From: a virus | Lineage: Duplodnaviria; Heunggongvirae; Uroviricota; Caudoviricetes | Length of the DNA: 64,000 bases | IMG/VR virus record: IMGVR_UViG_3300050026_000282 | Location: 13,231-77,230 of that record | Strand: one strand, 5' to 3' | Shown: one piece after another, positions 9,670-63,031 of the stretch | Numbering within the stretch: position 1 is the stretch's first letter | How the letters are laid out: each line of letters opens with the position of its first letter | Translations under genes and position numbers: made by a program | The notes under the pieces: model-generated | Told to the model about the DNA's origin: nothing | What the model saw: the letters and a program-made list of their open reading frames with translations, nothing else | Database searches by the model: none

Positions 9670-9698
9670 CGGGTTTTATGTGGCGCATTCAGTTATGT
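9670..9698. repeat. RIT terminal inverted repeat, left copy (reverse complement of ACATAACTGAATGCGCCACATAAAACCCG)
   Basis: Perfect 29/29 match to the reverse complement of 13035..13063. Confidence 0.8.
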
Positions 9699-9766
9699 GG
9701 CGTCCAGCACGAATCGCCAGCGATTTAAGGGATCGTTACTGTGCTGAACGCCACATAATGCGTGTC

Positions 9767-12961: not shown

Positions 12962-13034
12962 AGCGTAGCACCTAATTATGTGGTGCAGAAAACGGGCAAA
13001 ATGCTGAAATACGGCTGGAGGAACGAGCTAGACA

Positions 13035-13063
13035 ACATAACTGAATGCGCCACATAAAACCCG
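13035..13063. repeat. RIT terminal inverted repeat, right copy ACATAACTGAATGCGCCACATAAAACCCG
   Basis: Perfect inverted copy of 9670..9698. Confidence 0.8.
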
Positions 13064-16258: not shown

Positions 16259-16855
16259 CTATAGATAGGAACAGTTGAGAAGGCCGAGTGTCGCACGAAT
16301 TCCCAGAAGATTCCTGAGAATGTGTTCTTCTCGTGGAGTCGCCCACAGATCGTTCCACGGGGCCGGCACAGTGATGGCATTCCCGCCGTGCTTGCGGAAC
16401 AAATCGACGTTCACCGAGTAGTCGTCGATCAGGATTGAGTCTCTAGTGGCCAGCAGCCACTTCCTTGGCGTGATGAAATACTGGCGGTGAAGCCAGTCGG
16501 GTAGATTCTTGTGAATCCACTCCAGCTTGCCGGCGAGGCAGTCGGGGTCTTTGGTCGTGCTCGTGGCGATGTAGATGTTGTCTCTGCCGGCCACCGACTC
16601 GCACGTTGCGAGCAGCCAGGGGAGCAACGGAGAGCGCGGGGTGTCTGCCCACGTCTTTCTCCCAAGCGCCTCCCAGAAACTCGCTTCCGTTGTAAACCGC
16701 TGCTCTCCCAGAAGGATGTTTGCGCCTGCCACGATGTCATAGCCCACGTCCGGCAGCCCTTCGTAGCTTGTCGGACTGACCGGGCAGCCGACAAGGTAAA
16801 GCGCATAGGGAGTGAACGTGTTGCACACATCATCCATGTCAAGGAAGATTCTCAT
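16259..16855 (-). CDS. 5'(3')-deoxyribonucleotidase (HAD superfamily, NT5C-like)
   Basis: MRIFLDMDDVCNTF matches HAD motif I of deoxyribonucleotidases; downstream DxxxD-like LIDDYSVN. ATGA-coupled to sigma factor stop. Confidence 0.65.
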   Translation of the reverse strand: MRIFLDMDDVCNTFTPYALYLVGCPVSPTSYEGLPDVGYDIVAGANILLGEQRFTTEASFWEALGRKTWADTPRSPLLPWLLATCESVAGRDNIYIATSTTKDPDCLAGKLEWIHKNLPDWLHRQYFITPRKWLLATRDSILIDDYSVNVDLFRKHGGNAITVPAPWNDLWATPREEHILRNLLGIRATLGLLNCSYL

Positions 16856-17439
16856 GCGCACAGTTCCTTTACGTGTTCTTCGTAGCGGGCGCGGATGGCA
16901 TGAAAGTTGTCGATCACAGTCCGGCGGGGAATGCCGACCAACTGGGCTATTTCAGGGAACGTGTAGCCATCCTTCCGAAGGCGAACTAACTCGCGGTCCA
17001 AGGGCGTTTCACACGCAGATTTGATCTGGTCGGCTTCGTCAACGACTGCGACGGTATCAAATCGGGTTCCCATCGTCCGCTTACTCAAGTCCGTTTCGCT
17101 GGACTGGTAGGGGGCGTGCCGAGCGGCCTTGTGGATAGCATTACGAATCGACTTCGACATATACGCGGTGGGACCCTCCCTGGTCAGAGTTGTGGCTGGC
17201 AGGGTGTTGACCGCGCGTGTTAGTGCCAGAAACGCTTCGCTCGTTAGGTCATCGCGTAGATATTCAAAGTCTGTGTTTGACTTCAGGTAGTCATCGACGA
17301 TGCTCACCACCATCAGCATGTTGCCAGTAATCATCCTCTGGTGCGCTTCTTCGTCGGGAAGTAGAGCATAGAGGGCGTCGTTGTCAGGGGTCTCACAAAC
17401 AGCCTTCATGTTGCTGACAAGTTCAGTGTTGTACTTCAC
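16852..17439 (-). CDS. sigma-70 family RNA polymerase sigma factor (ECF-like)
   Basis: Region-4 HTH LRKDGYTFPEIAQLVGIPRRTVIDNFHAIRARY; region-2-like segment upstream. Confidence 0.5.
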   Translation of the reverse strand: MKYNTELVSNMKAVCETPDNDALYALLPDEEAHQRMITGNMLMVVSIVDDYLKSNTDFEYLRDDLTSEAFLALTRAVNTLPATTLTREGPTAYMSKSIRNAIHKAARHAPYQSSETDLSKRTMGTRFDTVAVVDEADQIKSACETPLDRELVRLRKDGYTFPEIAQLVGIPRRTVIDNFHAIRARYEEHVKELCA

Positions 17440-25636: not shown

Positions 25637-27600
25637 ACGGTTACTTCTTCCACAGTGAAATCATCTTCAGTCTCGGGAACGTCCCAACTGATGCCGCTCA
25701 TAGCTTCGCCCATCGTCAGCAACTCCAACTGGCGATTTGCCTCTATCACTTCAAGGACCTTCCGGTCCGTTGGTAAATGAATCAGGTCCACGATCAATAG
25801 GCCAGGATTGTCTTCGCCAATCGATTGGATACGGGCCGCAGCTTGAATCCGGTACTCGGGCTTGAAGCTGTTGCTCCAGAAGACAACCATGCGGCTCTCA
25901 CGAAGAGTCAGGCTCATGCCGCCACTCTCGGGATGCGAGACGAACGCCGCGCGGGGATGGTTCTCGCGGTCGGCCCAGTAGTCCAGGGCCTCTTCGTCCA
26001 ACACGACATCACCGTTAGCCTTCGTCACCTGCCAACCACGGCCGTCGCAACGGACTACGTCCCAGCCCTCTTTGCGGCACAGGCCGGCAACACGGTCCAC
26101 GCTCCCAGTGAAGCCGGCGAAGATCACAATGCGGCCGGTTTCTTCGCACTCATCGAGAAGGCCGCGTAACGCCCTGTCCTTCGGGCAGGGAACTTCCTTG
26201 GCCTGGCGTACCTTCTTGACGACTTCCTTCTTTCCTTCGCAGCATGGACAGGGGACTTCTCGCTTCTGCAAGCGAGCGACACATTCCTTGTCGAGCATGT
26301 CCACTGACTTGTAGCTTCGGCCGTCATCCTCCGGGTCGAACCACTCTTCGACAACTCCGGTTGCGTTGCAGTGTCCGCACGGAATCTTCCCATCGGCGAC
26401 TTCCCGATATTGGAAGCCGTCGCTGAGTTCCCGCGTGAGGGTCAAGCCAGTGATCGCGTTCGGTGCCGACTGCACGAGTGCCTTCGCCACGCGAAGCGTG
26501 CTTGCATTCGGCTTGCAGTAGATTCTCCGGTAGGTCTTCTCCGGCAGGCCAACGCAGTCCTTCAAGTGCTTGACGATGACCAACCCTTTTAGCCGGTCAG
26601 AGAGGTAGGAAATCTCATTAGCGCTTGGCTCGTACTTTTCGCACGCGCACGCTTCCGATTCTTTGTCATCCTCGGTCAGGTCTTCCCGCCGATACTTGCC
26701 GCAGTGCTTGCACTTTCGCTCGTCGTCCTTCCAGCCGACCCGCGCCTTGAAGGCCCCGGCGTCGTACTGCTGAACGACCGTGAACGCCAGTCGGTCTTCC
26801 AGAGACTTGGGCGAGCCCTCTCGCAAGAATCCCGGCCAGGCGATCTCTGCCTGCTTCCACCAATCCAAGGGCGACTTCGGGCTCGGCGTACCAGACATTT
26901 CGATGACGAAGCCGTCGAAGCCGTGGGCCTCCCTAATCTTGTCTGCCATCCGTTGCATGGCCTCGCTTCGTTGCGACGTGGCCCCTTTGCAACGGCTCGA
27001 TTCGTCGCCAACCAATCCCAGCGGGACGGGCGTGCCAGGCTGCCACTCATCCATGACGCGGACGAGGGCCTCGTAGGTCATCATTTCGACGTGGACGTTC
27101 GGGTCGAGATTCCAACGGCGAAACTCACGGCGAATGTTCGGCAGGCTCGTCTTCGGCCCGACCCACCACCACTCTTTCACGCCCGACCGCTCCATCACCT
27201 CTTGCACGGCCAGCGTCTTGCCAGTCCGCATTTCTGCGGCCATGATGCCGTAGTGATAAGTGAGGAAGTGATCGGCAAGTTCCTTCTGATGCTCCATCAG
27301 CGGGCGGGTGTACTCGTGCTTCACGACCGGGCGCTCGAACCACGCATACACGTCCTCGCCTATCAAGTAGTCGAGTTGAAAACGATTGCGCTGGCAGTCA
27401 GCGACCGACCACACTTTACGGGGCGGGTCCTCGAAGCCGTGCCACTTGCTCCCTTGCATCGCCTTGATCTCGTCCTTGAGGGCGAAGGGCGACTTGAGGA
27501 AGAAGATGCGGGCGTCCTTATATTCCAGGGTGGCTTCCGACTTAACGAGTGTGCCGCCCGGCGACCGGTGGATCAGTTTGACTTCTTTGATCTCGCTCAA
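25633..27600 (-). CDS. SNF2/DEAD-like superfamily 2 helicase with zinc-finger inserts
   Basis: Walker A MRTGKT, DExx LVGDESSRCK, motif VI QAAARIQSIG; CxxC...CxxC clusters in the middle. Confidence 0.7.
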   Translation of the reverse strand: MSEIKEVKLIHRSPGGTLVKSEATLEYKDARIFFLKSPFALKDEIKAMQGSKWHGFEDPPRKVWSVADCQRNRFQLDYLIGEDVYAWFERPVVKHEYTRPLMEHQKELADHFLTYHYGIMAAEMRTGKTLAVQEVMERSGVKEWWWVGPKTSLPNIRREFRRWNLDPNVHVEMMTYEALVRVMDEWQPGTPVPLGLVGDESSRCKGATSQRSEAMQRMADKIREAHGFDGFVIEMSGTPSPKSPLDWWKQAEIAWPGFLREGSPKSLEDRLAFTVVQQYDAGAFKARVGWKDDERKCKHCGKYRREDLTEDDKESEACACEKYEPSANEISYLSDRLKGLVIVKHLKDCVGLPEKTYRRIYCKPNASTLRVAKALVQSAPNAITGLTLTRELSDGFQYREVADGKIPCGHCNATGVVEEWFDPEDDGRSYKSVDMLDKECVARLQKREVPCPCCEGKKEVVKKVRQAKEVPCPKDRALRGLLDECEETGRIVIFAGFTGSVDRVAGLCRKEGWDVVRCDGRGWQVTKANGDVVLDEEALDYWADRENHPRAAFVSHPESGGMSLTLRESRMVVFWSNSFKPEYRIQAAARIQSIGEDNPGLLIVDLIHLPTDRKVLEVIEANRQLELLTMGEAMSGISWDVPETEDDFTVEEVTV

Positions 27601-28112
27601 CGCTTATCCTCCAGAAGTAAGGTCCCATCAGGCAGGGCGCGACTTGCGCACTCTTTCCACACGTCCAAGCCAGCCGCCTTGAACACGTCCATGACCCGGT
27701 TGAATCCGGCACGAACGCTCGGTTGGCAGGAGTTCGTTGAACCGAGCTTCACGGCGGTGTGCCACTGGGCAAGCGTGCCGCTGATGACCGCCAATTGAAC
27801 GCCGCGAAGAACGGTGCCCGTTGTGACGAATGGCATTTCAGCGACTTCAAGTATGGCCAGCATGGTTTCCTCATCCGCTGCGACGAGCACGCTGAACGAC
27901 GCATGGCTCAATAAATGAGGAGCTAACCCCGGCTTGGCGTTGCGATCTTGCATCGCGGCCAAGCAGGAAATGAACCGTTCCGGCTCGGATCGCTCGATAA
28001 GGCTTTTGTCAACACTCTCCGCAACGGAGTACCCTAATGCCTGTTGGCACAGGCTGAGGAACGTGTTGAAGTCCGCGACCGGCGATTGGATGAGTGCTGC
28101 GCTTGGAGTCAT
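27597..28112 (-). CDS. hypothetical protein (about 171 aa from internal ATG)
   Basis: Internal start MTPSAALIQ of track ORF 27597..28292. Confidence 0.35.
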   Translation of the reverse strand: MTPSAALIQSPVADFNTFLSLCQQALGYSVAESVDKSLIERSEPERFISCLAAMQDRNAKPGLAPHLLSHASFSVLVAADEETMLAILEVAEMPFVTTGTVLRGVQLAVISGTLAQWHTAVKLGSTNSCQPSVRAGFNRVMDVFKAAGLDVWKECASRALPDGTLLLEDKR

Positions 28113-28209
28113 AAAGTGATCTCGAAAAGGCCCCGCCAGGCTTGTGACCTGGCGGGGCACAAATACCCACTGTGAGATAGCGTGTCCGAGCAGAGGCCCA
28201 GTGGGTTTA

Positions 28210-28944
28210 CTACCGGGCGCGGGACTTCCGATTGTCCTCGGCCTTTTCCACGCCCTCGGACTTCGGCTTGAGGAAGCGTTCGATCTCCTCAATGATCCGA
28301 GTCATGGGTGGGACCTTGTTGAAGGGCGTGGAGCACTTCGTAACGAGCGGGCCATACCAGGAGTTGCCCTTCTTCTCGATGTAGCGCGTCTGGAGAGTCA
28401 TGGGCATCGGACCGTGAGGGGCAAGTCCCTTCACGTCCTGGCTATTCGCCGCACGCCGGTCGATGTCGGCCTGCGTGAGGTTCATGTGGTTGGACACCGC
28501 GCCGGCCTCGCGCAGCGAGGTGGCATTGCCGAAGAACAACTCGTAGAAGCTGCCCGTCGAGCGCTCGTAGACCAAGAAGCTGATACCGCACTGGCAACTG
28601 GAGTCCTTCTCCATCGACAGGGCGCGAATCTTCTTGAAGCTGTCCGAGGTTTCGTCATACGAGGTGACGATGGCGGAACGATCTCGCATATCGACCGCTT
28701 TCGGCCGGCGAGCAAACGGGACCACGTCGATGGAATCACCGAGATCGGTAATCGTCTCGTCCGGGCCGGGAATACCCCAGTGGCCGTTGGCGATCTTGTT
28801 CTTCTTCGTGAACTTGTCGTTGTTGCACAGCTTGAGGTATTTGAGGTAATTGCCGCCCTTGGTCAGGTCAGCGAACGCATCATCGGTGCCAAGTTGGGTG
28901 GAGGGGAGTTGGGTCAGATCAATGGTTGCAATCGCATTAGACAT
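28210..28944 (-). CDS. hypothetical protein (244 aa); possible ssDNA-binding/annealing accessory by position
   Basis: First gene of the leftward operon, adjacent to the helicase; no motif recognised. Confidence 0.4.
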   Translation of the reverse strand: MSNAIATIDLTQLPSTQLGTDDAFADLTKGGNYLKYLKLCNNDKFTKKNKIANGHWGIPGPDETITDLGDSIDVVPFARRPKAVDMRDRSAIVTSYDETSDSFKKIRALSMEKDSSCQCGISFLVYERSTGSFYELFFGNATSLREAGAVSNHMNLTQADIDRRAANSQDVKGLAPHGPMPMTLQTRYIEKKGNSWYGPLVTKCSTPFNKVPPMTRIIEEIERFLKPKSEGVEKAEDNRKSRAR

Positions 28945-29025
28945 GAGAAAACGCTCCAGGTGAAAAGTAGGCAGAACAGAGACGGCACCCTCCCTCGCTT
29001 TCTGTTAGTGGTTGGTGAACCTGCG

Positions 29026-29154
29026 AAGTAAACCTGCACATATAGAAGAGTCTGGAAACGCACAATTAGGCGGAAACGCAAACAATTTCTGGTAATTCCC
29101 AAGTTTCCGCCTAAATCGTTTTGTTGAGACTCTTCTATATGTGCAGGTTTACTT
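29026..29154. promoter_or_regulatory. divergent control region with nested inverted repeats
   Basis: 28-bp perfect arms AAGTAAACCTGCACATATAGAAGAGTCT (29026-29053) and RC (29127-29154); inner 12-bp arms TTAGGCGGAAAC (29066-29077) / GTTTCCGCCTAA (29103-29114). Sits between leftward and rightward operons. Confidence 0.55.
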
Positions 29155-29185
29155 TGCGAGGATTAACAACCGCCGCGTCAATCAA

Positions 29186-31840
29186 ATGCCTAAAGTCTCA
29201 GAAGCAATCGGTTCCTTCCTCCATGCCCGTGCCACCCCGGCCAACCAGGACTTGGTTGACCGGTGGAACATTGGTATGGAGGTCCAGGTCAACGTCTCGG
29301 CCGGCAATGGCGAGCTAGTGGCCGGGAAGAAAGGGACCTACAGCGATGGTGTCAATGAATGGCACTCGATCCGCATTCCCAAGAAGGCCATGAGCGACCC
29401 GGAGTTCACGGACTACGAGTTACGCTGGCCGCTCGATCTCCACGCCGAAGGCATCGGCATGACGGGCTGGGACTGGCAGGAGCGCAAGTCACGCTGGGTG
29501 GCGTTCGACGTGGATAGCATCATCGGCCATGCTGCCGGCGTCGGGATCAGCGACGAGAACCTGGAGAAGGTCAAACAAGTTGCCGGGTCCCTGCCTTACG
29601 TGGAAGTCCGCAAGAGCACGGGCGGCGGCGGGTTGCACCTTTATGTCTACTTGGATGGCATCCCGACCGCCAATCACACTGAGCACGCCGCCCTGGCTCG
29701 GGCCATCCTCGGGATGCTCAGTTCCGAGACGGGCTTCGACTTCTCCAGCCAGATCGACGCCTGCGGCCAGATCATGTGGGTCTGGCACAAGAAGATGACG
29801 GCCGGGAACAGCGGCCTGTCGGTCATCAAGCCGGCCGAGAAGATACTGACGATCAACGATCTGCCGAGCAACTGGCGGGACCATATTGAGGTCGTGACCC
29901 GCCGCAGGGCCAAACTCAAGGTCAGCGGGGTGAGCGAGGATGGGCCGTTTGAGGCCCTGTCCAGCGGCCGGCGCATGGTCCCCCTGGACGCCAAGCACAA
30001 AGAAGTGATCGATGAACTGACCCGATCAGGCTTTTCGACGGTCTGGATACCCGATTACCACCTCCTGCAAACACACACGAAGGCGCTGGAGGGCCTGAAA
30101 GAGTCGCTGAAGATCAAGGGCATCTTCAAGACCAACTCGCCGGGAAGGCACCCAGAAACGTGCAACTGCTTCTGCTTCCCCCTCGATGAAGGGGCTTGGC
30201 GAGTTTACCGCTTCTCTCCTGGCACGACCGAGGCCGAGACCTGGCAGCAGGACGGCAACGGCTGGACTACCTGCTACTTCAACCGTACCCCCGACCTGGA
30301 CACGGTGGCCCGAGTCACGGGCGGCGTCGAAGCGCCCGACAACGGCGGTTACGTGTTCTCCACGGCCGAGGATGCAGCCAAGGCCATCGAACTCCTCGGT
30401 CAACCTGTCGAGATTCCGGCAGAGTTAAAGGGGCGCGTAACCAACCTCAAGGTCCAGAAAGACGGCCGCATTTCAATCAATGTCAAGAAGGAAAAGGGCG
30501 AAGCGGCGGCCCCGCAAGGTTGGGTAAACGGTCGCGGCAAAATCCAGAAGCTCTTGAATCTGCGAGCCGAAGTCAAGGCGCAGATCGCTGACGAGAGCTA
30601 TGGCACGCACGACAAGATTATTCGGACGCTTATCACACCGCTCAATAAGGCTGCGGGTTGGGTTCTCAACACCGAGGCAGGCGACTGGTCCGACCGGCCC
30701 AAGGATGACATCAGAAGTGCGCTGGTATCGCAAGGGATGTCCAAGACGGACGCTGAAGTAGTCCTTGGCGGGGCCTGCCTGAACCCGTGGCGGCTCGTCG
30801 TCCAGCCCTTTCAGCCCGAGTATCCAGGCGGCCGTCAATGGAACAGAGAAGCGGCACAATTCCGCTACCAGCCGAGTGAAGGCGAGCACCCGCACTGGGA
30901 CATGATCCTCCAGCACTGTTTCGGTGATCTCGACAATGGCGTCAGAAATCATCCTTGGTGTCAGAAGCACAACGTCAAGAGCGGTGCTGAGTACGGGCTG
31001 TTGTGGGTAGCCAATCTCTTCCGCTTCCCGTTCAAGCCGTTGCCTTACTTGTTCCTGTACGGCGGTGAGAACTGCGGCAAGTCCACGCTGCACGAGTCTC
31101 TCCAATTCTTGATGACGAAAGGCATTACCTGTGCCAACAACTCGCTCACCAATCAGAGCAATTTCAATGGTGAGTTAGCGGGGGCCATCCTAGCCTATGT
31201 CGCCGAGTTGGACATTTCCAAGTATCCGGGAGCACTCAACAAGATCAAGGAATGGGTAGTCAGTCCGATGTTGCCGATCCGGCAGATGCGCACAGACACC
31301 TACATGATGCCCAACACGTTGCACTTCATCCAGACCGCGAACTCGGCTGATTTCTGCCCGATCTTTCCCGGCGACACTCGCATCACCATGATCTGCGTGT
31401 CGCCGTTGGGAGACAAAGAGATCGGTCGGGATAAGTTCCACGAGTTTCTCACGGCTGAAGCGCCACATTACCTTTACACGCTACTGAACATACCGCTTCC
31501 CGAGCCGGAAGGTCGGTTGAGAATCCCGGTCATTGATACGGGCAACAAAGCGCGAGTGCAGGACAACCGGCGTCCGTTGCTTGAGCAATTCATTGCTGAG
31601 CACTGCCACGCGATCCCTGGCGGAAAGGTCCGCTTCAAGGACTTATACGAGAACTTCATCGAGTGGATCGGCCACGAAGAACGGACCAAATGGACCAAGC
31701 GGAGAGTGTTACAAGAACTGAAGCTACCGCATGGCGTTCATGCGGAGAACATGAAGTGGGTTGGCAATATCTCATGGGATGATTCTCCAGTGGAAGATTC
31801 TCGTCCTTGGGTGGCCGAGAACGGAAGATTAAGGCAATAA
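29186..31840 (+). CDS. primase-polymerase (AEP-like N-terminus) fused to D5/P4-type SF3 helicase
   Basis: RKSTGGGGLHLYVYLDG hLHlh-like motif. C-terminal Walker A YGGENCGKSTLHES and Walker B-like AYVAELD. ATG at 29186 preferred over the GTG at 29141, which lies in the IR. Confidence 0.75.
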   Translation: MPKVSEAIGSFLHARATPANQDLVDRWNIGMEVQVNVSAGNGELVAGKKGTYSDGVNEWHSIRIPKKAMSDPEFTDYELRWPLDLHAEGIGMTGWDWQERKSRWVAFDVDSIIGHAAGVGISDENLEKVKQVAGSLPYVEVRKSTGGGGLHLYVYLDGIPTANHTEHAALARAILGMLSSETGFDFSSQIDACGQIMWVWHKKMTAGNSGLSVIKPAEKILTINDLPSNWRDHIEVVTRRRAKLKVSGVSEDGPFEALSSGRRMVPLDAKHKEVIDELTRSGFSTVWIPDYHLLQTHTKALEGLKESLKIKGIFKTNSPGRHPETCNCFCFPLDEGAWRVYRFSPGTTEAETWQQDGNGWTTCYFNRTPDLDTVARVTGGVEAPDNGGYVFSTAEDAAKAIELLGQPVEIPAELKGRVTNLKVQKDGRISINVKKEKGEAAAPQGWVNGRGKIQKLLNLRAEVKAQIADESYGTHDKIIRTLITPLNKAAGWVLNTEAGDWSDRPKDDIRSALVSQGMSKTDAEVVLGGACLNPWRLVVQPFQPEYPGGRQWNREAAQFRYQPSEGEHPHWDMILQHCFGDLDNGVRNHPWCQKHNVKSGAEYGLLWVANLFRFPFKPLPYLFLYGGENCGKSTLHESLQFLMTKGITCANNSLTNQSNFNGELAGAILAYVAELDISKYPGALNKIKEWVVSPMLPIRQMRTDTYMMPNTLHFIQTANSADFCPIFPGDTRITMICVSPLGDKEIGRDKFHEFLTAEAPHYLYTLLNIPLPEPEGRLRIPVIDTGNKARVQDNRRPLLEQFIAEHCHAIPGGKVRFKDLYENFIEWIGHEERTKWTKRRVLQELKLPHGVHAENMKWVGNISWDDSPVEDSRPWVAENGRLRQ

Positions 31841-31842
31841 CC

Positions 31843-32043
31843 ATGTACGAACGACCTCTATCACACGCGGACATTCTTGCGATTGCGGATCATCTGAACG
31901 GAACAGGTGAGTTACTGGGGATCGCCATGAGCGAACTCGGATTCAACCCGCGTCTCTACGGAGACGCCGAGGTTGAAAAGTGGCTGGAGGAAGAAGCCGG
32001 CCTGGTCCAGGACAGCGACAGTGGAATTTGGTTCTTTGAGTAG
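31843..32043 (+). CDS. hypothetical protein (66 aa)
   Basis: Internal ATG MYERPLSH of track ORF 31807..32043, immediately after the primase stop. Confidence 0.3.
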   Translation: MYERPLSHADILAIADHLNGTGELLGIAMSELGFNPRLYGDAEVEKWLEEEAGLVQDSDSGIWFFE

Positions 32044-32051
32044 ACCCCAGG

Positions 32052-32690
32052 TTGCAAATCATGCCCACTCTTTTTCTCGGCTTCGGCCACTACTCCCGCA
32101 CAGGGAAAGACACGACCGCCAATTACTTCCTTAGCCACTACGGCGACGGAGTTCTCAAGCGGTCCTTTGCCTGGAAGCTCAAGCAGATCACCTACGAGCT
32201 ATACGCTTGGGCTGGCCTGATGCCGCCGGAGTATTACGAGACGCCGGAGGGGGCAAAGGCGCGTGACATCAAGCTGCCTGGCTTGGATATGACGCCCGTT
32301 GAAGTCTGGGTGGCATTCGGGACCGAGGCCATTCGCAAGAACGTCTACCAGGGGACGTGGGTGGACTACTTGCTGAAGAATGACCACAAGTGCGACGTGC
32401 TGGTCATCCCTGACGTGCGTTTCCCCAATGAAGCCGAGGCGATCAAGACTGCGGGCGGGAAGATCGTCAAGGTCGTGCGACCAGGCTATGGGCCGCGCAA
32501 CACAGTCGCCGACCGGGCCTTGATCGGCTACGACGGGTGGGACTATGTCATCGGCGAGTCGGGTGAAATGGATGATCTTGACAACTGGGCCTGCTTGTTC
32601 GCTATGGCGGCTCGGCGAGAGATCGCGTGGCCCCGTCAAACGGCGGAAGAGCGGAAGGCAGCCCTGACAGTAGAGAGGATTGAACAGTGA
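32052..32690 (+). CDS. deoxynucleoside monophosphate kinase (T4 Dnk-like)
   Basis: LGFGHYSRTGKDTTANYF P-loop variant, as in T4 gp1 GxxRSGKDT. Confidence 0.6.
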   Translation: MQIMPTLFLGFGHYSRTGKDTTANYFLSHYGDGVLKRSFAWKLKQITYELYAWAGLMPPEYYETPEGAKARDIKLPGLDMTPVEVWVAFGTEAIRKNVYQGTWVDYLLKNDHKCDVLVIPDVRFPNEAEAIKTAGGKIVKVVRPGYGPRNTVADRALIGYDGWDYVIGESGEMDDLDNWACLFAMAARREIAWPRQTAEERKAALTVERIEQ

Positions 32691-33268
32691 AGCACCTGAA
32701 AACCAACATCATCGCCGCCCTAGACTTCGAGACGACGGGCACCGACCCAAAGACGGCCGAGATAATCCAGATCGCCGTCGTCCCGCTGGGCAACGATCTG
32801 CTGCCGCTCAAGGAAGCCTTCTACACCCTTGTGCGACCAGAGCATCCTGAGAGTGCCGACCCGGCCGCTCTGGTGATCCACGGGATCACTCTCGAAGAGT
32901 TGGAAGAGGCCCCAGATGCGACGAAGGTCGCCGATCTCCTGTACGAGTGGGTTCGGTCGCTCAAGTTGCCCGTGGGTGGCAAGGTCATCCCGCTGGTCCA
33001 CAACTACCCCTTCGAGTACGGCTTCTTGACCGCCTGGCTTGGCGCGTCAATGCGGGACGAGCTATTTCACTATCACCCACGGGATGCAATGACCTTCGCG
33101 CTCGGCCTGAATGACCGAGCAGCCTTGAAGGGCGAGGAGACACCTTTTGCAAGCGTCGGACTCTTGGACCTTTGCCAGCACTTCCACGTCACGAATCCGA
33201 ATCCGCACGATGCCTTGTACGACTCGCTGACCGAAGCGACTATCTACCGAGAGTTACTGCTGCTATGA
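32687..33268 (+). CDS. DnaQ-like 3'-5' exonuclease (DEDDh)
   Basis: Exo I ALDFETTG, Exo II HNYPFEYGFL, Exo III HDALYDS. Confidence 0.75.
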   Translation: MKHLKTNIIAALDFETTGTDPKTAEIIQIAVVPLGNDLLPLKEAFYTLVRPEHPESADPAALVIHGITLEELEEAPDATKVADLLYEWVRSLKLPVGGKVIPLVHNYPFEYGFLTAWLGASMRDELFHYHPRDAMTFALGLNDRAALKGEETPFASVGLLDLCQHFHVTNPNPHDALYDSLTEATIYRELLLL

Positions 33269-33492
33269 GAGTCTTCAACTACGCCAAGGCGGTCGCAGAG
33301 TGGGTCGCTGCCGGCCGGCCCACTCGGTCCGATGAAGACGTAGCGACAATCTTTCGTGTCATCTGTAAGCCCTGTGCTCTCCACTATCGTGGCTCCTGCC
33401 GTGAGTGCGGCTGCCGCGTGAGAGCAGAAGGGCCGGCCGTGTTCAACAAGATCAAGATGGCAACTCAACACTGCCCTCGCAATAAGTGGTGA
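33265..33492 (+). CDS. zinc-ribbon protein (75 aa)
   Basis: Internal ATG ATGA-coupled to the exonuclease stop; CKPCALHYRGSCRECGC. Confidence 0.35.
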   Translation: MRVFNYAKAVAEWVAAGRPTRSDEDVATIFRVICKPCALHYRGSCRECGCRVRAEGPAVFNKIKMATQHCPRNKW

Positions 33493-33495
33493 CTT

Positions 33496-34245
33496 ATGCC
33501 CCCGTTCAAAGACGATGATTGGAATGCGGTCATCAAGCAGGTCAATGGCTTGATTGCCAATGGTTGCACCGGTAGTACGAAGCTGCAAGAGGTCGGAAAA
33601 GACCACATTTGGTCGGTCGATGACATACGAGCGGTGCGAAACACGCTGGCTACCATGTGCTCGAATAAGCCGGGCTTCTCCGTACCAACTGTGAAGTGGA
33701 CGCAAAAGATCATCGACGAGTTAAATACGGTGATTGCACACTGCGAGTGCCAGAAGTACCCCTACGCAATCCAGCTTCCCGGCTTTTCCCTTCCGCTTGT
33801 GGGGGCAACCGTTACAACGTCTGGCAGTAGTACGATGGCAGACGGACAAATCCTGACAGAATGGACAGATACGAAAACGACCTATTCTCTCTCAACGCCG
33901 CTCCAGTCCCTCTTCGACGGGACGCAGGTTGGACCAGCAGGAATCTCCGGTCGAACGTTCCAGGCGTTCCTCGCTGCCACTTGGTATGAGTACGTTAGCA
34001 ACAATGGCGTGGTACAAGGCAGCGGGTCCTGGGTGCAAGCTGTCGCGGTACAAGGCACGGTCGATTCTGGTGGCATCTGCCACGGTTCCAGTTCAACTAA
34101 CCTGTGGACGTGGCCATACTCGGACGATCAGGAAGTGACCGTAACCTACTATCCAGATAGCCCGAACCCACAGGTGTTTTCGGGTAGCTACATAACAGAA
34201 TATCTAATCACTGGATGCACCGCCTATCTATGGATTACGAAGTAG
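33496..34245 (+). CDS. hypothetical protein (249 aa)
   Basis: ORF track. Confidence 0.4.
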   Translation: MPPFKDDDWNAVIKQVNGLIANGCTGSTKLQEVGKDHIWSVDDIRAVRNTLATMCSNKPGFSVPTVKWTQKIIDELNTVIAHCECQKYPYAIQLPGFSLPLVGATVTTSGSSTMADGQILTEWTDTKTTYSLSTPLQSLFDGTQVGPAGISGRTFQAFLAATWYEYVSNNGVVQGSGSWVQAVAVQGTVDSGGICHGSSSTNLWTWPYSDDQEVTVTYYPDSPNPQVFSGSYITEYLITGCTAYLWITK

Positions 34246-34712
34246 CGGGCTACCCTGCCTGCGGCACTTGCGCCGACGCCCAGGGGCCGCCCAACTCCCT
34301 GGCTCTTTATCGGCTCTGCCTCGGTGGCAGACCAGAGCACCACAATAGACTTGTCGATGTCCGCGCGTGCCGAGCGTGCAAGGGCATCGGAGAAGACAAG
34401 CCGGATGCGCTTGGCGCTTCCCGTCCTGACCTTGTCTTCCCACTTCCCGAGCCCACAGGCGAGTTCCGGTACACGAGTCGCCCGGACGGTTCAATACTGT
34501 ACGAGAAACTCGGCTGGGAATTGCCCGCCAGCATTGCCGGGTATCAGCGCGATGAAGTCAACAAGTGGCTCTTCCGACCGCTCTGGCCCATCTGCGCAAC
34601 AAGAGAGCCACGGGCTTTCATCCGTGGCTCTTGCGGTTGCGTCCAGGTGGAAATGCGGTGCGATGGCAAGCTCGCCTCTCTGACGGATTGCCGGCTCTGC
34701 CGTCATGTGTAG
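34230..34712 (+). CDS. cysteine-rich hypothetical protein (about 160 aa)
   Basis: Internal start MDYEVAGYPACGTCADAQ; 12 Cys including CGTC, CRAC, CGC, CRLC. Confidence 0.35.
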   Translation: MDYEVAGYPACGTCADAQGPPNSLALYRLCLGGRPEHHNRLVDVRACRACKGIGEDKPDALGASRPDLVFPLPEPTGEFRYTSRPDGSILYEKLGWELPASIAGYQRDEVNKWLFRPLWPICATREPRAFIRGSCGCVQVEMRCDGKLASLTDCRLCRHV

Positions 34713-35278: not shown

Positions 35279-35279
35279 C

Positions 35280-35453
35280 TTACTTCCCCTTCTTGAAAGA
35301 CCGCAGGGTCTTTGCCAGATTGATTTCCTTCTTGATCTCCGGGCTGCGATGCGGGGCCGCCATGTATTGGCCCAACGTCACGCCGGCTGCCGAGGCCCGA
35401 GCCTTTAATTCGCCCGGATGCTTGATCGCACTAGAAATCCAGTCCTTCGCCAT
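35280..35453 (-). CDS. small DUF3008-like protein (57 aa)
   Basis: Internal start MAKDWISSAIKHPGELKARASAAGVTLGQYMAAPH... Confidence 0.3.
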   Translation of the reverse strand: MAKDWISSAIKHPGELKARASAAGVTLGQYMAAPHRSPEIKKEINLAKTLRSFKKGK

Positions 35454-35463
35454 GATGTCACCT

Positions 35464-39152: not shown

Positions 39153-40174
39153 TAGACGCTCTTCATACCAAAAAGGGCCGAAGCGATAGTTGCGCTGGTC
39201 CAAGCCAGCCCGCTCAGATCAGTGTCAAAAACGCGGCGGTAGTCAACATAGCTCGAAGTTAAGGACTGAGTCGCTCCATCGCTCTCCGTGCCGTTCTGTG
39301 AGCAAACCAAGGAAAGGCCGTTAGTGCCCCCAGCCAATTCCTTAGCTGTCACCTCCAACTGAACGCCATAGACCGTGAGCCCGGAGAAGTTCGCGCCAAA
39401 GGGGTTAGTGAGACTGTAAAGGTCCATCTGCGCCGGCACACTGGTCGTCACGTAGCTCGTGCCGTCCGGCGGGCACTCGGCGAGAAGTGGATAGTGACTC
39501 GTTCCACTGCTCGTGGTCCACTGGACGGTTCCATCGGCGCTTGGATAAAGGACTGCAAAGGCCGTGCATGGGCCGGGATAATCGTTGTTGACCGCCCCGC
39601 TCCCATCGAGAATATAAATCTGGTCGAGCGTGTCTGCGCCCGTAGGCCCGAAGGACATCCGCACGACGTTGTAGAAGGCATCAGTTCCGGCTCGGGTGTT
39701 CTGGGCGGTGAGACTGAGCCGCGAAGTGCTGGACACCCAGACTTGGACGGTGCCGGTCGTTGCGTGGCAAAGGACCTTAATGGCAACAAAGTACCAGCTT
39801 CCCGCCGTAACGGCCGCCCCGGTCGTCTTACCGAGCAGTGTAGTTCCCCGGTAGACATAAATCTCCTGCGTCAGCGGGTCCCACTGCACGTCGATGCCAA
39901 GGGTGGTGCCGTCCCGCAGTTGTAGGAACGAGTGAGCGGCGGTGGTGGCCGTCGAACCACAGAATCGTAACCCGACGACCAACGTCGAATTCGTCGTCAG
40001 CGCGGGTGTTTCCAAGTACGCCCCGCTGCTGGAGGCACCCAGGCCGAGGCCGCCAAAACAACTATTGACTGCCTGAAAGGTGCCATTGACTGTGGCGTAA
40101 CGGTACGCCAAGTAGCTGGTGATTGTCGAACTCGCCGGGCCGTAGGACTCAGCGCTATCCATCCAGACGAACAT
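39152..40174 (-). CDS. tail fibre-like protein, paralog D (starts MFVWMDSAESYG)
   Basis: About 340 aa. Shares TPALTTN.TL.VGL, D.Q(W/N)(D/N)PLTQEI.V.RG.TLLG, QWTTSSGTSHY, DYRR and AWT blocks with the other three paralogs. Confidence 0.5.
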   Translation of the reverse strand: MFVWMDSAESYGPASSTITSYLAYRYATVNGTFQAVNSCFGGLGLGASSSGAYLETPALTTNSTLVVGLRFCGSTATTAAHSFLQLRDGTTLGIDVQWDPLTQEIYVYRGTTLLGKTTGAAVTAGSWYFVAIKVLCHATTGTVQVWVSSTSRLSLTAQNTRAGTDAFYNVVRMSFGPTGADTLDQIYILDGSGAVNNDYPGPCTAFAVLYPSADGTVQWTTSSGTSHYPLLAECPPDGTSYVTTSVPAQMDLYSLTNPFGANFSGLTVYGVQLEVTAKELAGGTNGLSLVCSQNGTESDGATQSLTSSYVDYRRVFDTDLSGLAWTSATIASALFGMKSV

Positions 40175-41217
40175 TATGCCACCTCCACTCCGATCTGAGC
40201 CGCAACGATACTGGTCGGGGTCCATGCCAACCCCGTGGCAGGGTCGCACTCCAAGACTCGTCGGTAGTCGATAAAGCTACCACTCCCGACAACCTGGCCA
40301 GCATCATTGCTCGTCACACCGCCAGAGATCGCCGGAGTAATCAGAGTGTTCGCCGAGTCGGTGATCTGCCGGCAAGTCGTGTTGATCTGAATGCCGGCCA
40401 CCGCCGTAAAGGCTGTTGGTGCTGAGTAGGTGAAGGTATCGATCTTCCCCGAAGTTCCCGTTTGCACGTTCGTGGTGCTGTCGTCGGCCGGATTCTCATT
40501 CACGAGACTGTAGTGGCTTGTGCCGGCGCTGGGCGTCCATTGCGAAGTCGCGTCGGCGGCCGGAAAGATCGCCGAGACCGTGGGGCATCCGAGGAAGTAG
40601 TTGTTGTTGGTCCCTGTCCCGTCTGCGATGTATAGGTCGTCGATCACGTAGCTGGCAAGGGTCGCGCCGCCTCCACCAGACCCTACCCAGACATGGTCGT
40701 AGTAAGCGTCAGCGGTCAGCGTGTTCTGCCCCGTGAGCAACAACTTGGTCGAGCCACCGACGCGCAGCTCAATTACCCCGGCCGTCGCGCTGCAATAGCA
40801 TTTGAACTCAAGGTAGAACCAGGCACCTTGAGAGATCGCCGCTCCAGACGTGGTTCCAAGAAGGTTGCCGCCGAGGTAAACTGCAATCTCAGAGCCGGCC
40901 GGCTGGAAGACAATCCCTTGTGAGGAACCGTCATACAACATGCAGTACGCATAACCAGCCCCGGTTCCAAGCGCGCCTGTCCATTTGACGGCGAGGCCGA
41001 CGAACAACGTCGGGCTCGTCGTCAGGGCGGGAGTCACGAGGGCACAGGAGTTCGAGGTCCCGGCTCCCTGGTGCCCGTAGCCACCATTCCGGCCGCTGGC
41101 CAGATATTGATGCCCCGTGTTACTCAACATGGCATAGCGGCGGGTCAGCAGCGACTCAATCGCGGTTGAGGTCGTTGTCCCGTAGCCCTCGAAACCGTCA
41201 ATCCAAAGCAGAGCCAT
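40174..41217 (-). CDS. tail fibre-like protein, paralog C (starts MALLWIDGFEGYG)
   Basis: Same family; internal ATG adjacent to the stop of the repeat protein. Confidence 0.5.
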   Translation of the reverse strand: MALLWIDGFEGYGTTTSTAIESLLTRRYAMLSNTGHQYLASGRNGGYGHQGAGTSNSCALVTPALTTSPTLFVGLAVKWTGALGTGAGYAYCMLYDGSSQGIVFQPAGSEIAVYLGGNLLGTTSGAAISQGAWFYLEFKCYCSATAGVIELRVGGSTKLLLTGQNTLTADAYYDHVWVGSGGGGATLASYVIDDLYIADGTGTNNNYFLGCPTVSAIFPAADATSQWTPSAGTSHYSLVNENPADDSTTNVQTGTSGKIDTFTYSAPTAFTAVAGIQINTTCRQITDSANTLITPAISGGVTSNDAGQVVGSGSFIDYRRVLECDPATGLAWTPTSIVAAQIGVEVA

Positions 41218-43463: not shown

Positions 43464-44483
43464 TTACTGGACTTTCACGCCGAATGTTGCCGCATTCAAT
43501 GCTGTCGGCGTCCAAGCCACACCCGTGTTGGGGTCCGTCTCGATGATGCGTCTAAAGTCCGAGTAGGTCGTAATTGAGACGGTCTGCGCAGTGCCATCAC
43601 TCTGGGTGCCCGAGTAGACTGGCATAAGCAGATTGTACGTATTGGTATCAGTTACGCGGCAAGCGGCAACAAGTTGGACGCCGATGATTGTCGCCGCTCC
43701 GTAGGCAACCTGCGTGTATCCGTAGAGATCGGTCTGCCCCGACGTGGCGCTTGAAACCCAGGAAGTATCATCGTTGGGCGGGTTCTCGTTCACCAGGCTA
43801 TAGTGTGTCGATCCACTGCTCGTTGTCCACGCTACCGATGAGTCGGTGGTTGGCAACAGTAGTCCGACGACATTACAGAGTCCCAAAAAGTCGTTATTGA
43901 CCGAGCCACTTCCATCGGTGATGTAAGCGGAATCAACGCCATTGCCACCGTTAGACCCAAAGTAGAACCGCACGGCATTGTGGTAAGAGTCAGTCCCCGC
44001 CTTCGTGTTCTGGCCGGTCAGCAGCAATTTGGTAACGCCGGCGACCCGAACCTCGACTGTCCCTGCCGATCCGTCACACTTAACCTTGACTTCAATGTGC
44101 ATCCACGTACTGGGCGTGAGGTTGGCTCCTGTGGTGGTGCCGAGGGCGGTTGAGCCTCGGAGGACAGTAATCTCCTGCGTCAGGGGATTCCACTGCACGT
44201 CAATCCCGAGGGTGCCCCCATCGTAAAGTTGTATAATCGAGTGCGCGGCGGTCGTGCTCCACACGGGATTGAATCGCAAACCAACGGCCAGCGTGGCATT
44301 GGTTGTAAGTGTGGGGGTCATAAGGTAGGCACCTCCACCACCCGTCACGCCAAGGCCGTTGGGGGCTCCGCACGTCGTTATCGTGCCGTTCACCGAGGCG
44401 TAACGGCGGCCTATCATCGTTGTGATATTCACCGACGATGCGGCAGCGTAGGACTCAAATCCGTCAACCCAGAGGAGTGCCAT
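43464..44483 (-). CDS. tail fibre-like protein, paralog B (MALLWVDGFESYA)
   Basis: Same family. Confidence 0.5.
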   Translation of the reverse strand: MALLWVDGFESYAAASSVNITTMIGRRYASVNGTITTCGAPNGLGVTGGGGAYLMTPTLTTNATLAVGLRFNPVWSTTAAHSIIQLYDGGTLGIDVQWNPLTQEITVLRGSTALGTTTGANLTPSTWMHIEVKVKCDGSAGTVEVRVAGVTKLLLTGQNTKAGTDSYHNAVRFYFGSNGGNGVDSAYITDGSGSVNNDFLGLCNVVGLLLPTTDSSVAWTTSSGSTHYSLVNENPPNDDTSWVSSATSGQTDLYGYTQVAYGAATIIGVQLVAACRVTDTNTYNLLMPVYSGTQSDGTAQTVSITTYSDFRRIIETDPNTGVAWTPTALNAATFGVKVQ

Positions 44484-44485
44484 GT

Positions 44486-45532
44486 TTAACCTACCTTTAC
44501 ACCAATCTGTGCCGCTCCGAGCCCAGTAAGGGTCCAGGCCGCACTCGTCGCAGGATCAAGCTCAACGATACGCCGTCGATCCACATAGCCACTCGCGCCA
44601 ATTATCTGACCAGCGTCGTCGCTTTCGACACCGTTCGAGATTACCGGAGTTATTAGATTATGGACGCTATCCGCCGACTCTCTGCAAGTCGTGGTGATCT
44701 GAACGCCGGCAATTGAAGTGACCGGCGGCAGACCCGTGTACGTATAGAGGTCTGCTTGTCCCGTTGTGCCTTGCACATACGACGTGTCATCGTCTGACGG
44801 GTTCTCGCTCAGCAAGTTGTAGTGCGTAGCACCCGAACTTGTCGTCAATTGCGTACTCGCGTCACCGTTAGGAACAACCGCCACAACCTTGTGGTTGCCG
44901 AGAAAGTTGTTGTTTACCGATCCGGCACCATCAAGGATGTAAACATCGTCAATGAGATAGTTGCCCAACGTACCACCACCGCCGCCCGAGCCAAAGCGTA
45001 CCCGGTCGTAAAAGCCGTCAGTGCCCGCCTTTGTGTTCTGGGCAGTCAGCGATAACTTCGTCACGCCGTTTACCCGGACCTCAACGGTTCCGAGCGTTGC
45101 ATGACAGTAAACTTTGAGTTCGACGTAGTACCATGTGTTGATTGCTATTCCGGCACCACTCGTGGTCCCCAAAAGTGTACTGCCACGGTAGACACCAATC
45201 TCCGCAGTAGCGGGCTGGAGGCAAATGCCCTGCGTCGTACCATCATAGAACTGACAGTAGTCATAGGTATTGTCTCCGCCGAGGCTACTCCATTTCGCGG
45301 CCATGCCAATGACAAGCGTGGCATTCGTTGTCAGCGCCGGGGTCTGTAGACAACACGCACCGTAGTTACCGGTGCCCTGTAACGAATAACCACTAAAGCG
45401 TCCCGCCGCTAGATACTGATGTCCAATGCTCGTTAGGGCCGCATAGCGGCGACTCATGAGTCCTTCCACCGCGTTCCCGCTGCCGGTGACGGTCCCGTAC
45501 CCCTCGAAGCCTTCGATCCACAAGAGAGACAT
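44486..45532 (-). CDS. tail fibre-like protein, paralog A (MSLLWIEGFEGYG)
   Basis: Internal ATG of track ORF 44486..45886; upstream 118 aa is R/H-rich read-through. Confidence 0.5.
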   Translation of the reverse strand: MSLLWIEGFEGYGTVTGSGNAVEGLMSRRYAALTSIGHQYLAAGRFSGYSLQGTGNYGACCLQTPALTTNATLVIGMAAKWSSLGGDNTYDYCQFYDGTTQGICLQPATAEIGVYRGSTLLGTTSGAGIAINTWYYVELKVYCHATLGTVEVRVNGVTKLSLTAQNTKAGTDGFYDRVRFGSGGGGGTLGNYLIDDVYILDGAGSVNNNFLGNHKVVAVVPNGDASTQLTTSSGATHYNLLSENPSDDDTSYVQGTTGQADLYTYTGLPPVTSIAGVQITTTCRESADSVHNLITPVISNGVESDDAGQIIGASGYVDRRRIVELDPATSAAWTLTGLGAAQIGVKVG

Positions 45533-60298: not shown

Positions 60299-60769
60299 CT
60301 AGTTCAACTCGGCTTGGATGACTTCGATGTCGTTCGACCGTACTTCGTGAGGGGTGCCAGGATTGAGGATGAAAGTCGGCAGAGAAGTGATGTTGTACTT
60401 GCGAGCGATGTCCGGGTGCTCGTCGTAATTGATCCGCTCCACAATCACGCCTGCCGCTTCAAGCTGATTGACGACAGGCTTGACCCGCTGGCAAGCAGTA
60501 CACCAGTCGGCGTGAAAGACGAGGAGGTGATGCTTGTCCACGGGACGCACCGGAGTAACGATGACTGGTGTTACAATCACCGGACGGACCGGGTGGTTAG
60601 GCCGGACAGGACAAACGGGGTGAACGGGGCGTACCGGGCGCACCGGCCGCATATTCGAGTGCGGCCGTCGCCATCCCATGACTTCCGGGGATGGCGAGAC
60701 GACCAAAGTCGCCAAGCCGCCGATCAACAGGGAAGCCAGGAATGAAGCTAGGAATGAGTTTCGATTCAC
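60299..60769 (-). CDS. secreted thioredoxin-like protein with (R)PVxP repeat linker
   Basis: Signal peptide MNRNSFLASFLASLLIGGLATLVV; repeats RPVRPVRPVHPVCPVRPNHPVRPVIVTPVIVTPVRPV; thioredoxin motif WCTACQ and fold-like C-terminus. Confidence 0.55.
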   Translation of the reverse strand: MNRNSFLASFLASLLIGGLATLVVSPSPEVMGWRRPHSNMRPVRPVRPVHPVCPVRPNHPVRPVIVTPVIVTPVRPVDKHHLLVFHADWCTACQRVKPVVNQLEAAGVIVERINYDEHPDIARKYNITSLPTFILNPGTPHEVRSNDIEVIQAELN

Positions 60770-62920: not shown

Positions 62921-62977
62921 ATATATAGAAGAGTCAAAAAACGAGTTTTTAGGCGGAAAATTAGAAGAATTCTGCCC

Positions 62978-63012: not shown

Positions 63013-63031
63013 TTCTGAATCTACCGACTCA

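Follow-up and report, generated by a model that had tools for sequence, protein, structure and literature searches.

A directional box-and-core module repeated at three gene-block heads in a phage of the Planctomycetota group, and its reading as a promoter

The 64,000-nt stretch of IMG/VR record IMGVR_UViG_3300050026_000282 analyzed here (positions 13,231 to 77,230 of that record, the window in what follows) comes from a phage whose group, a large one, comprises phages and prophages of Planctomycetota (Pirellulales, Thermoguttaceae). Its divergent control region and the head of its late genes share an element that we read, with a probability of roughly 0.7, as a directional promoter module of about 50 bp, present in three copies that each head a gene block. 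Two copies stand back to back between the leftward and rightward replication-gene blocks and the third stands 34 kb away, ahead of a block that begins with lysis-like genes and continues into the terminase and virion genes.

Architecture and copies of the module

An inverted-repeat search of the whole window ranks highest a pair of 55-nt arms, 29023-29077 and 29103-29157, which are 82% complementary across a gap of 25 nt. Nested within them are perfect 28-nt arms (29026-29053 and 29127-29154) and perfect 12-nt inner arms, TTAGGCGGAAAC at 29066-29077 and GTTTCCGCCTAA at 29103-29114, and the coordinates and sequences given for these in a preliminary description of the window were all correct on re-check. 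The mismatches between the arms lie almost all in the 13 nt separating the 12-nt box from the 28-nt core, where 4 of 13 positions are identical by manual count. Given full (100%) identity of the boxes in the two arms and a spacer that is about random, we take selection to have acted on two protein-contact blocks held at a fixed spacing, and not on a continuous hairpin or by way of a recent duplication.

Read on the minus strand, the left arm has the upstream box GTTTCCGCCTAA (29066-29077) 13 nt upstream of GACTC, followed by the core AGACTCTTCTATATGTGCAGGTTTACTT (29026-29053), which includes a -10-like TATATG and faces the first gene of the leftward block (28210-28944, minus strand). That gene encodes 244 aa without a family match and is conserved in 96 related loci, and the block it heads, devoted to replication and nucleotide metabolism, runs from 28944 to beyond position 1. 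The right arm has the same box GTTTCCGCCTAA on the plus strand (29103-29114) and a plus-strand core (29127-29154) facing the primase-helicase gene (DUF5906; 29186-31840, plus strand), which is the first gene of a rightward block spanning 29186-34712; the core stops 31 nt short of the ATG at 29186. Between the two modules is a 25-nt A+T-rich center (29078-29102) with 16 of 25 positions A or T (64%, manual count) versus about 42% A+T in the window. The primase leader has in addition a box, GCCGCGTCA (29172-29180, plus strand), that is the sole copy in the window and is also present in the control regions of many relatives. An Rfam scan of 28700-29400 gave no family match.

The same inverted-repeat search pairs 29101-29151 with 62912-62962 over 51 nt at 75%, and this second locus is the third module, on the minus strand, with box TTTTCCGCCTAA (62960-62949), a 13-nt spacer, and core GACTCTTCTATAT[AT]GTGAGTTTA. 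It differs from the other two copies by the AT insertion (TATAT[AT]GTG) and by a different sequence 3' of the insertion, and it has a single box only, one half of the palindrome. An intrinsic terminator with a 12-bp stem and a T-tail, the strongest in the window, closes the preceding unit at 62987-63016 on the minus strand and is separated from the module by 24 nt, which is a typical operon boundary; the terminator proposed just upstream of this site is a real one, on the strand of the late genes. The first gene past the module (62342-62920, minus strand) encodes a C92/YiiX-type amidase by a sub-threshold Pfam match (E = 7.6e-4). Its homologues align from residue 1, and the probable start, a GTG at 62920 that is the only plausible start codon, falls inside the module core, confirming the overlap already noted in the preliminary description. 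After it come a lipobox protein and three membrane proteins, so that calling this region a lysis cassette is reasonable as to content, but it forms no separate unit. The leftward block continues from 62920 to 34703 through terminase, portal, tape-measure protein, and tail genes, and since it does so without a strand switch, the third copy heads the entire late block.

Box and core are exactly 13 nt apart in each of the three copies. When up to 3 mismatches are allowed, ACATATAGAAGAGTC is found 3 times in the 64 kb against 0.58 expected, a count reached in 1 of 100 shuffles, and TTAGGCGGAAA with up to 1 mismatch also occurs 3 times against 0.55 expected, a count reached in none of 100 shuffles. 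Mismatch-tolerant scans of the window found no copy beyond these three, and the repeat structure is beyond chance. All three copies are intergenic, have the polarity of the gene downstream, and lie at the start of a long co-directional block, the heads being those of the leftward replication block (28944), the rightward primase block (29186), and the leftward lysis-like/terminase/virion block (62920). The idea that one cis-regulatory element is shared between the divergent replication-gene region and the block headed by C92 is borne out by this. The form proposed for it, a single palindromic operator, fits poorly: the supposed half-motifs make up one directional module facing its gene, the third site has just one such half, and the palindrome is accordingly two outward-facing modules set back to back. 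Most likely, then, the element is one directional module (box, 13 nt, core) in three copies and not a palindromic operator. An exact scan for the module in viral contigs gave 0 matches, a scan of JGI metagenomes gave one (L157), which fell by chance within a coding region of no relation, and blastn of 27000-33000 against the INPHARED phages gave no match.

Conservation among Planctomycetota phages and prophages

Conservation in related phages had been set beforehand as the check on the element, and the arrangement is kept. An inverted-repeat score of at least 17 is found in 58 of 90 distinct regions upstream of the primase gene in Planctomycetota phages and prophages (64%), while none of 280 random 403-nt segments reaches that score, their maximum being 14. 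The relatives' arms face outward and end 20-100 nt ahead of the primase ATG, always in the layout of a central box or palindrome, a variable spacer, and a 20-28-nt core ending TA..GTG. The core sequence itself is specific to the lineage, differing among related phages and matched within each genome, with the layout constant; the closest core among the relatives is that of L037, GCACTTCTACATGTGAC versus GACTCTTCTATATGTGC. In most relatives the center is a compact dyad, such as TTTCCCA-N7-TGGGAAA, TTTTCAG-N7-CTGAAAA, or TTTTTCTAAG-N4-CTTAGAAAAA, and these dyad types occur with differing cores. Some relatives have a ParB-like gene inserted on the leftward side, and the inverted repeat then stays with the primase gene. 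The relatives are integrated prophages within Mb-sized contigs.

Late copies are also found among the relatives. In IMGVR_UViG_3300024349_000326, CGAGTTTTGGGAGTCATGTGTA is present in both primase arms (L150) with CTGGAAA 5 nt upstream, and the same CGAGTTTTGGGAGTCATGTGTA and CTGGAAA recur at 847-869 of L027, 15 nt before the first late-block gene. Other lineage-matched late copies are in L022, L018, L014, L034, L008, and L007, where they are on the late-gene strand and 0.3-1.4 kb upstream of the C92 homologue. As a control for these 7 late-copy matches, reversed cores gave 0 and shuffled cores 5, and because the count alone is not above decoys, the argument from late copies rests on their length, strand, position, and accompanying box.

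The promoter reading and its alternatives

As a promoter, the module would consist of the upstream box TTTCCGCCTAA and the core GACTCTTCTATAT..GTG with a -10-like TATAT(G/A), separated by 13 bp whose sequence is arbitrary. The two back-to-back copies would fire outward, one into the leftward replication and nucleotide-metabolism block and one into the rightward primase block, which is how the region comes to read as a nested palindrome, and the third copy, just past the strong terminator, would start the leftward late block. Transcription would presumably be by the host RNA polymerase, since Pfam and PHROG scans of the roughly 60 larger ORFs of the window found no RNA polymerase domain. If TATATG is the -10 element, the box is at about -45 to -34, where it may be the contact point for a protein that recruits the polymerase or silences the promoter, either an activator or, in this temperate group, a lysogeny repressor, and a protein bound there could act on all three units at once. 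We infer promoter activity, and with it a start point, from sequence and position. Taking TATAT(A/G) as the -10 would put the start of the third unit at or after the only plausible C92 GTG, so that one of the two assignments, -10 or start codon, would have to be shifted by a few bases unless the mRNA is leaderless.

The E. coli-type sigma-70 consensus, which may not represent the rules of a Planctomycetota host, has zero matches in 28000-30000 and 62000-64000 and fewer over the whole window than expected from shuffles. At the module copies the hexamers are limited to the -10-like TATAT(G/A), with no recognizable -35, and a sigma-54 or T7-like promoter was rejected by eye for its wrong spacing and the lack of an RNA polymerase gene. 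On the transcription signals of Planctomycetota or their phages, we found almost nothing in the literature. The contiguous conservation of a 20-28-bp core exceeds what a sigma-70-type promoter needs, and something else also reads the core. A tentative thought, which we hold to be rather improbable, is that an unrecognised phage specificity factor redirects the host RNA polymerase to lineage-specific promoters that co-evolve with it. Candidates for such a factor are the family-wide proteins of unknown function at 28210-28944 and 27597-28292, at the start of the leftward block, and the timing, early or late, would then depend on a slight but consistent change that late copies have immediately 3' of the TA.

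A related variant assigns the modules to a factor that the phage does encode, a 195-aa ECF-like sigma factor (16852-17439, minus strand) with weak matches to sigma-70 region 2 and region 4 and to ECF factors. By our own reading, the roughly 16-18 bp between TTTCCG and GACTC would fit sigma-family geometry, and the GGAAA-N16-GTC/GTT found in some relatives resembles ECF promoters. In the direction of transcription, however, no GGAAC-like -35 is followed at 16-17 bp by a CGT/GTC-like -10; the box toward the gene reads TTTCCGCCTAA (TTTCC, not GGAAC), and GGAAAC is on the opposite strand. Being encoded 11.6 kb into the leftward unit, the sigma factor could not start its own expression. Its homologues number only two (56% and 51% identity) among 5.8 billion proteins, on contigs that end before the primase region, whereas the module architecture is found in dozens of relatives, and this makes the sigma factor an unlikely reader. 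Within 10 kb of the primase gene, L121 is the only relative with a sigma match, a weak one, and L037, which has the closest core, has none in the 10 kb read on either side, although that MAG may be outside the protein database.

The boxes might alternatively be sites for one phage regulator and nothing more, with the actual promoters elsewhere in the same intergenic regions. Most relatives would suit this, having as their central element the compact dyad typical of a dimeric HTH protein, and the combination of dyad types with different cores suggests a separate reader of that element; moreover, because the relatives are integrated prophages, a repressor that silences every lytic unit is to be expected. 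What the window offers is of another kind. Its two 12-nt boxes point outward from a 25-nt gap, its third site has a single box, and the compact dyad looked for at each site (half-sites of up to about 10 bp, gap of up to about 10 bp), found in many relatives, is absent. The spacing of box to core is fixed at 13 nt with one polarity toward the gene, which is promoter-like and not operator-like, and the 242-nt and 66-nt intergenic spaces hold no other promoter candidate. In the window, which takes in all but about 13 kb of the source contig, scans of the flanking genes identified no regulator gene adjoining the sites and neither an HTH nor a repressor family, and among flanking and unknown ORFs compared with Pfam, PHROG, and PDB, the DNA-binding matches were the sigma factor and the N-terminal HTH-like stretch of a 438-aa exonuclease. 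A scan for genes whose occurrence tracks the type of central dyad (TTTCCCA versus TTTTCAG) yielded mainly spurious ORFs and the effects of shared ancestry. An operator without promoter function is to our minds as doubtful as recognition by the sigma factor. An origin of replication, in the form of a cruciform or of an A+T-rich site of unwinding that transcription may activate, is a shade more doubtful. The palindrome is immediately upstream of the primase-helicase gene, 31 nt from it, and in relatives the inverted repeat follows the primase gene even where the ParB-like insertion changes the leftward neighbor. The A+T content of its center stands out from that of the genome, the palindrome as single-stranded DNA has a folding energy of -47.6 kcal/mol (z = -12), the cumulative GC skew passes through a local minimum near 27-28 kb, and in many relatives the region comes with the conserved GCCGCGTCA box. 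Against this, the locus is not unique, the full arm being repeated 34 kb away before the late genes in the phage and in relatives; iterons are absent, the direct repeats being limited to two copies of GGAAACGCA 18 nt apart; the stem is broken by the non-complementary spacer exactly where a hairpin selected for its structure would be conserved; and the GC-skew minimum coincides with the gene-strand switch and is not diagnostic. The origin-like structure entertained in the preliminary description is weakened by the distant copy, the lack of iterons, and the unconserved spacer, and is not supported. That the repeat has no function, as a remnant of a recent duplication or gene conversion, would accord with arms identical across 28 nt, but it is effectively refuted by a spacer that has diverged to random between two perfectly kept blocks, by the same layout with different sequences in 64% of relatives versus none of the 280 controls, and by a third copy that retains box, spacing, and core.

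Comparison with known phage control regions, and meaning

Returning to the promoter module, its late copy can be compared with the lambda late promoter pR', which heads a late operon whose lysis genes immediately precede those for terminase. The late block here is similarly headed by one promoter candidate past a terminator, and is a long single-strand block with lysis-like genes first and then those for terminase, portal, and tail. Lambda has early and late promoters that bear no relation to each other, and its late genes depend on Q antitermination; here, the late candidate shares box and core with those of the replication genes, and no Q-like gene or qut-like site was identified. Divergent control regions are familiar from lambda PR/PRM with OR, Mu Pe/Pc, and phi29 A2b/A2c-A3, and the present region resembles them in having two outward promoter candidates in a short shared intergenic region with presumptive regulator sites between. 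The compact central dyads of the relatives fit that picture well. Unlike those regions, the two candidates here are identical copies, making the whole region a palindrome, and the central boxes are 25 nt apart and not a compact dyad, with no adjacent regulator gene.

As to repeated promoters, those of the T7 group are near-identical and are read by a phage RNA polymerase, and Streptomyces phage phiC31 has early promoters with conserved inverted-repeat operators. The modules resemble both sets in being long contiguous sequences of about 20-28 bp, repeated within the genome, that diverge between related phages and are matched within each genome; unlike the T7 group, no phage RNA polymerase was detected among the larger ORFs, and there are only three copies. 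The T7 primary origin has promoters and then an A+T-rich segment near replication genes, and the region beside the primase-helicase gene likewise has promoter candidates and an A+T-rich segment, although the geometry here differs, being that of a palindrome of two promoter candidates. It is a further, rather improbable idea that the palindrome also serves the neighboring primase-helicase as an origin activated by transcription.

What is described here is most likely ordinary phage gene control in a little-studied group of Planctomycetota phages, and for phage biology it is otherwise what is expected, a few strong repeated promoters heading long operons. As promoter candidates, the modules are compact and of defined orientation, the upstream box of each is separable, and they come with dozens of natural variants, internally matched, that can serve as starting points for mapping the promoter rules of Planctomycetota. 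They may also be useful for finding the lysogeny or late-gene regulator of the group and for building genetic tools.

The inverted repeat and the three modules

The largest inverted repeat of the 64-kb window lies between the start of the first leftward gene at 28944 and the ATG of the primase-helicase gene at 29186. In a repeat search of the window, its arms (29023-29077 and 29103-29157) are 55 nt each, 82% complementary and separated by 25 nt, with one perfect part of 28 nt (29026-29053/29127-29154) and another of 12 nt (29066-29077/29103-29114). The arm mismatches fall in the 13 nt between the perfect blocks, where 4 of 13 positions agree by manual count. Both half-motifs occur once more, at 62912-62962, which with the arms and perfect blocks confirms the inverted repeats and the recurrence noticed in the preliminary description. 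With mismatches allowed, about 0.6 copies of each half-motif would be expected in the window and 3 are present; the 64 kb contain no further ones.

Tabulated in the direction of the downstream gene, the copy toward the primase reads as box GTTTCCGCCTAA, 13-nt spacer atcgttttgttga and core GACTCTTCTATATGTGCAGGTTTACTT; the copy toward 28944 has the same box and core around the 13-nt spacer ttgtgcgtttcca; and that toward 62920 has box TTTTCCGCCTAA, 13-nt spacer aaactcgtttttt and core GACTCTTCTATATATGTGAGTTTATCA. This is one directional module of box, free-sequence spacer and core, each of its 3 copies being aimed at a gene start, and the palindrome is two modules back to back. A direct repeat of GGAAACGCA (29054-29080, two copies 18 nt apart) is found on the palindrome's left side only, so that the two modules, identical in other respects, are not symmetric. 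It is resembled by a TGGAAA-N12-TGGAAA pair ahead of the late module in L027, a locus from a related phage.

Gene blocks headed by the modules

The window, a tailed-phage genome, has three gene blocks, with one module at the head of each. The first runs leftward from 28944 to beyond position 1, and encodes two conserved unknowns, a helicase, a trypsin-like protease, Dam, an exonuclease, DNA polymerase A, an ECF-like sigma factor, a ligase, methylases and nucleotide-metabolism genes. The second, rightward from 29186 to 34712, encodes the DUF5906 primase-helicase, a dNMP kinase and an RNase T-like exonuclease. The third runs leftward from 62920 to 34703, opening with a C92/YiiX-type amidase, a lipobox protein, three membrane proteins (one with a thioredoxin domain) and the large terminase, followed by portal, tape-measure protein and tail genes. 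The preliminary description had placed this third module at a lysis cassette, a reasonable label, but the lysis-like genes merely open the whole late block, as they do in lambda. An intrinsic terminator (63016-62987, 12-bp stem) ends a short upstream unit, and the module lies 24 nt downstream of it; apart from this single strong case, terminator-like hairpins in the whole window show no excess over shuffles.

The automatic gene call starts the C92 amidase (62342-62920, minus strand) at TTG 63001 (219 aa), a start whose reading frame would span the terminator hairpin and the entire promoter-like module. The sole other in-frame start ahead of the conserved domain is GTG 62920, inside the core, and C92 homologues align from residue 1; GTG 62920 thus appears to be the only plausible start. 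Its position in the core would leave either a leaderless mRNA or a -10 element a few bases upstream of TATAT, which suggests that the C92 mRNA is leaderless or nearly so.

Several other features of the blocks were seen. The thioredoxin-domain protein (60299-60769) is membrane-anchored, and its gene immediately precedes that of the large terminase. A small minus-strand ORF at 35279-35463 (MAKDWISSAIKHPG...) is homologous to the gene that directly follows the late module in the related loci L007 and L008; in this phage it sits at the opposite end of the late block, so the start of the late operon has been rearranged. Diverged direct repeats in two tail-region genes (39668-41035 and 43977-45344; 64-79% identity, up to 132 nt) suggest paralogous tail-fibre-like proteins. 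Within the leftward block, a perfect 29-nt inverted repeat (9670-9698/13035-13063) encloses three tyrosine-recombinase genes in tandem (9767-12961, minus strand); the whole of 9670-13063 looks like an inserted "recombinase in trio" (RIT) mobile element, a type mentioned in PMC3414803. The ORF running off the right end (63435-64000) gives a weak, sub-threshold match (E = 0.021) to the "Recombinase" domain of serine recombinases; its C-terminus is HTH-like, and it could be an integrase or invertase.

Conservation in related phages and prophages

By blastn, 27000-33000 has no DNA match among deposited phages in INPHARED. Viral contigs yield hundreds of relatives of the primase-helicase, and more come from MAGs of Planctomycetota (Pirellulales, Thermoguttaceae and others), where they often lie in Mb-sized contigs and so belong to integrated prophages; replication-module synteny is kept. 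Scoring the best ungapped inverted repeat in the 400 nt that precede each primase gene, we find at least 17 in 58 of 90 distinct regions and in none of 280 segments drawn at random from these loci (maximum 14). The preliminary description had made its proposal depend on conservation in relatives, and the arrangement is indeed kept, the sequences differing by lineage while the layout is constant.

In that layout, the centre is formed by a box or, in more cases, by a compact dyad (for example TTTCCCA-N7-TGGGAAA or TTTTCAG-N7-CTGAAAA), the spacer is 8-14 nt and differs between arms, and the core is 20-28 nt, identical in both arms and outward-facing, with the 3' end TA..GTG. Examples of cores are TGTGTAGGTGTC and CTACATGTGAC, beside the window's own CTATATGTGC; those of the closest relatives, GCACTTCTACATGTGAC in L037 and GTCACTTTCTTATATGTGG in L135, are visibly akin to it. 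Across the primase-upstream regions L040-L124, discrete dyad types (TTTCCCA/TGGGAAA, TTTTCAG/CTGAAAA, TTTCCAC/GTGGAAA, TTTCCCGC/GCGGGAAA and TTTTTCTAAG/CTTAGAAAAA) pair with different cores, as though separate factors read the box and the core; no gene co-varying with dyad type was identified in these relatives. A further box, GCCGCGTCA, has a single copy in the window, at 29172-29180 in the primase leader. Of 101 primase-upstream regions from relatives, 35 contain its 7-nt core CCGCGTC (about 0.07 expected per region). The box is also found ahead of several late modules, at a distance of 50-70 nt (L007 541, L008 7130, L027 803); neither its position nor its orientation is constant.

The late copy recurs too. 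In IMGVR_UViG_3300024349_000326, CGAGTTTTGGGAGTCATGTGTA with CTGGAAA 5 nt upstream is present in both primase arms (L150), and again 15 nt before the first late-block gene on the late-gene strand (L027 847-869). Lineage-matched cores lie 0.3-1.4 kb upstream of a C92 homologue in L022, L018, L014, L034, L008 and L007, all on the coding strand; L008 is from the same metagenome as the primase contig L135, and the L007 late core, CTCTTCTATATGTGG, is nearly the window core. Reversed decoy cores gave 0 hits and shuffled cores 5, so the hit count by itself proves little, and it is match length, a box at the same spacing, strand and location that carry the argument. Late copies always diverge from the early arms immediately 3' of TA (TATAT[AT]GTG in the window, TGTGTA[T]GGTG in L027, TGTATA[G]GGTG in L022).

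Probable promoter function and candidate readers

This is a real, non-random and conserved cis-regulatory element, for which the best reading is a set of three promoter modules, including a divergent pair. The modules are directional, keep two blocks at a fixed distance across a spacer of free sequence, stand at operon heads and in one case just after a terminator, and have a layout conserved throughout the family; together these features make a promoter signature. A replication origin, also raised at the outset, would suit a region adjoining the primase-helicase with an A+T-rich centre and strong hairpin potential, but one arm recurs at the late operon, iterons are absent and an unconserved spacer interrupts the stem, and we do not favour it.

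If the modules are promoters, the host enzyme presumably reads them, since scans of the larger ORFs with Pfam and PHROG detected no RNA polymerase gene. The module sites (28000-30000 and 62000-64000) have no E. coli-type -35/-10 pair; window-wide, the E. coli sigma-70 consensus is matched less often than in shuffled sequence (2-4 against about 6 per 20 kb). The phage's own ECF-like sigma factor (16852-17439, 195 aa), with weak matches to sigma-70 r2/r4 and PF07638, is a poor candidate for the reader: a search of 5.8 billion proteins returned only two homologues (56% and 51% identity), one from the same sample as this phage; the sigma gene is deep within the leftward unit; and the box is oriented the wrong way round for an ECF -35 element.

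Taking TATAT(G/A) as the -10 element of such promoters would put the box at about -45 to -34, a site for an activator, or for a repressor occluding polymerase. As the relatives are prophages, a box common to all lytic units would enable a single protein to silence the whole programme or to switch it on. The core exceeds the length that a sigma-70-type promoter requires, and all copies within a genome vary together in it, which implies a further reader. Promoter modules of this sort would be ordinary in kind, and new only as members from a little-studied phage group.
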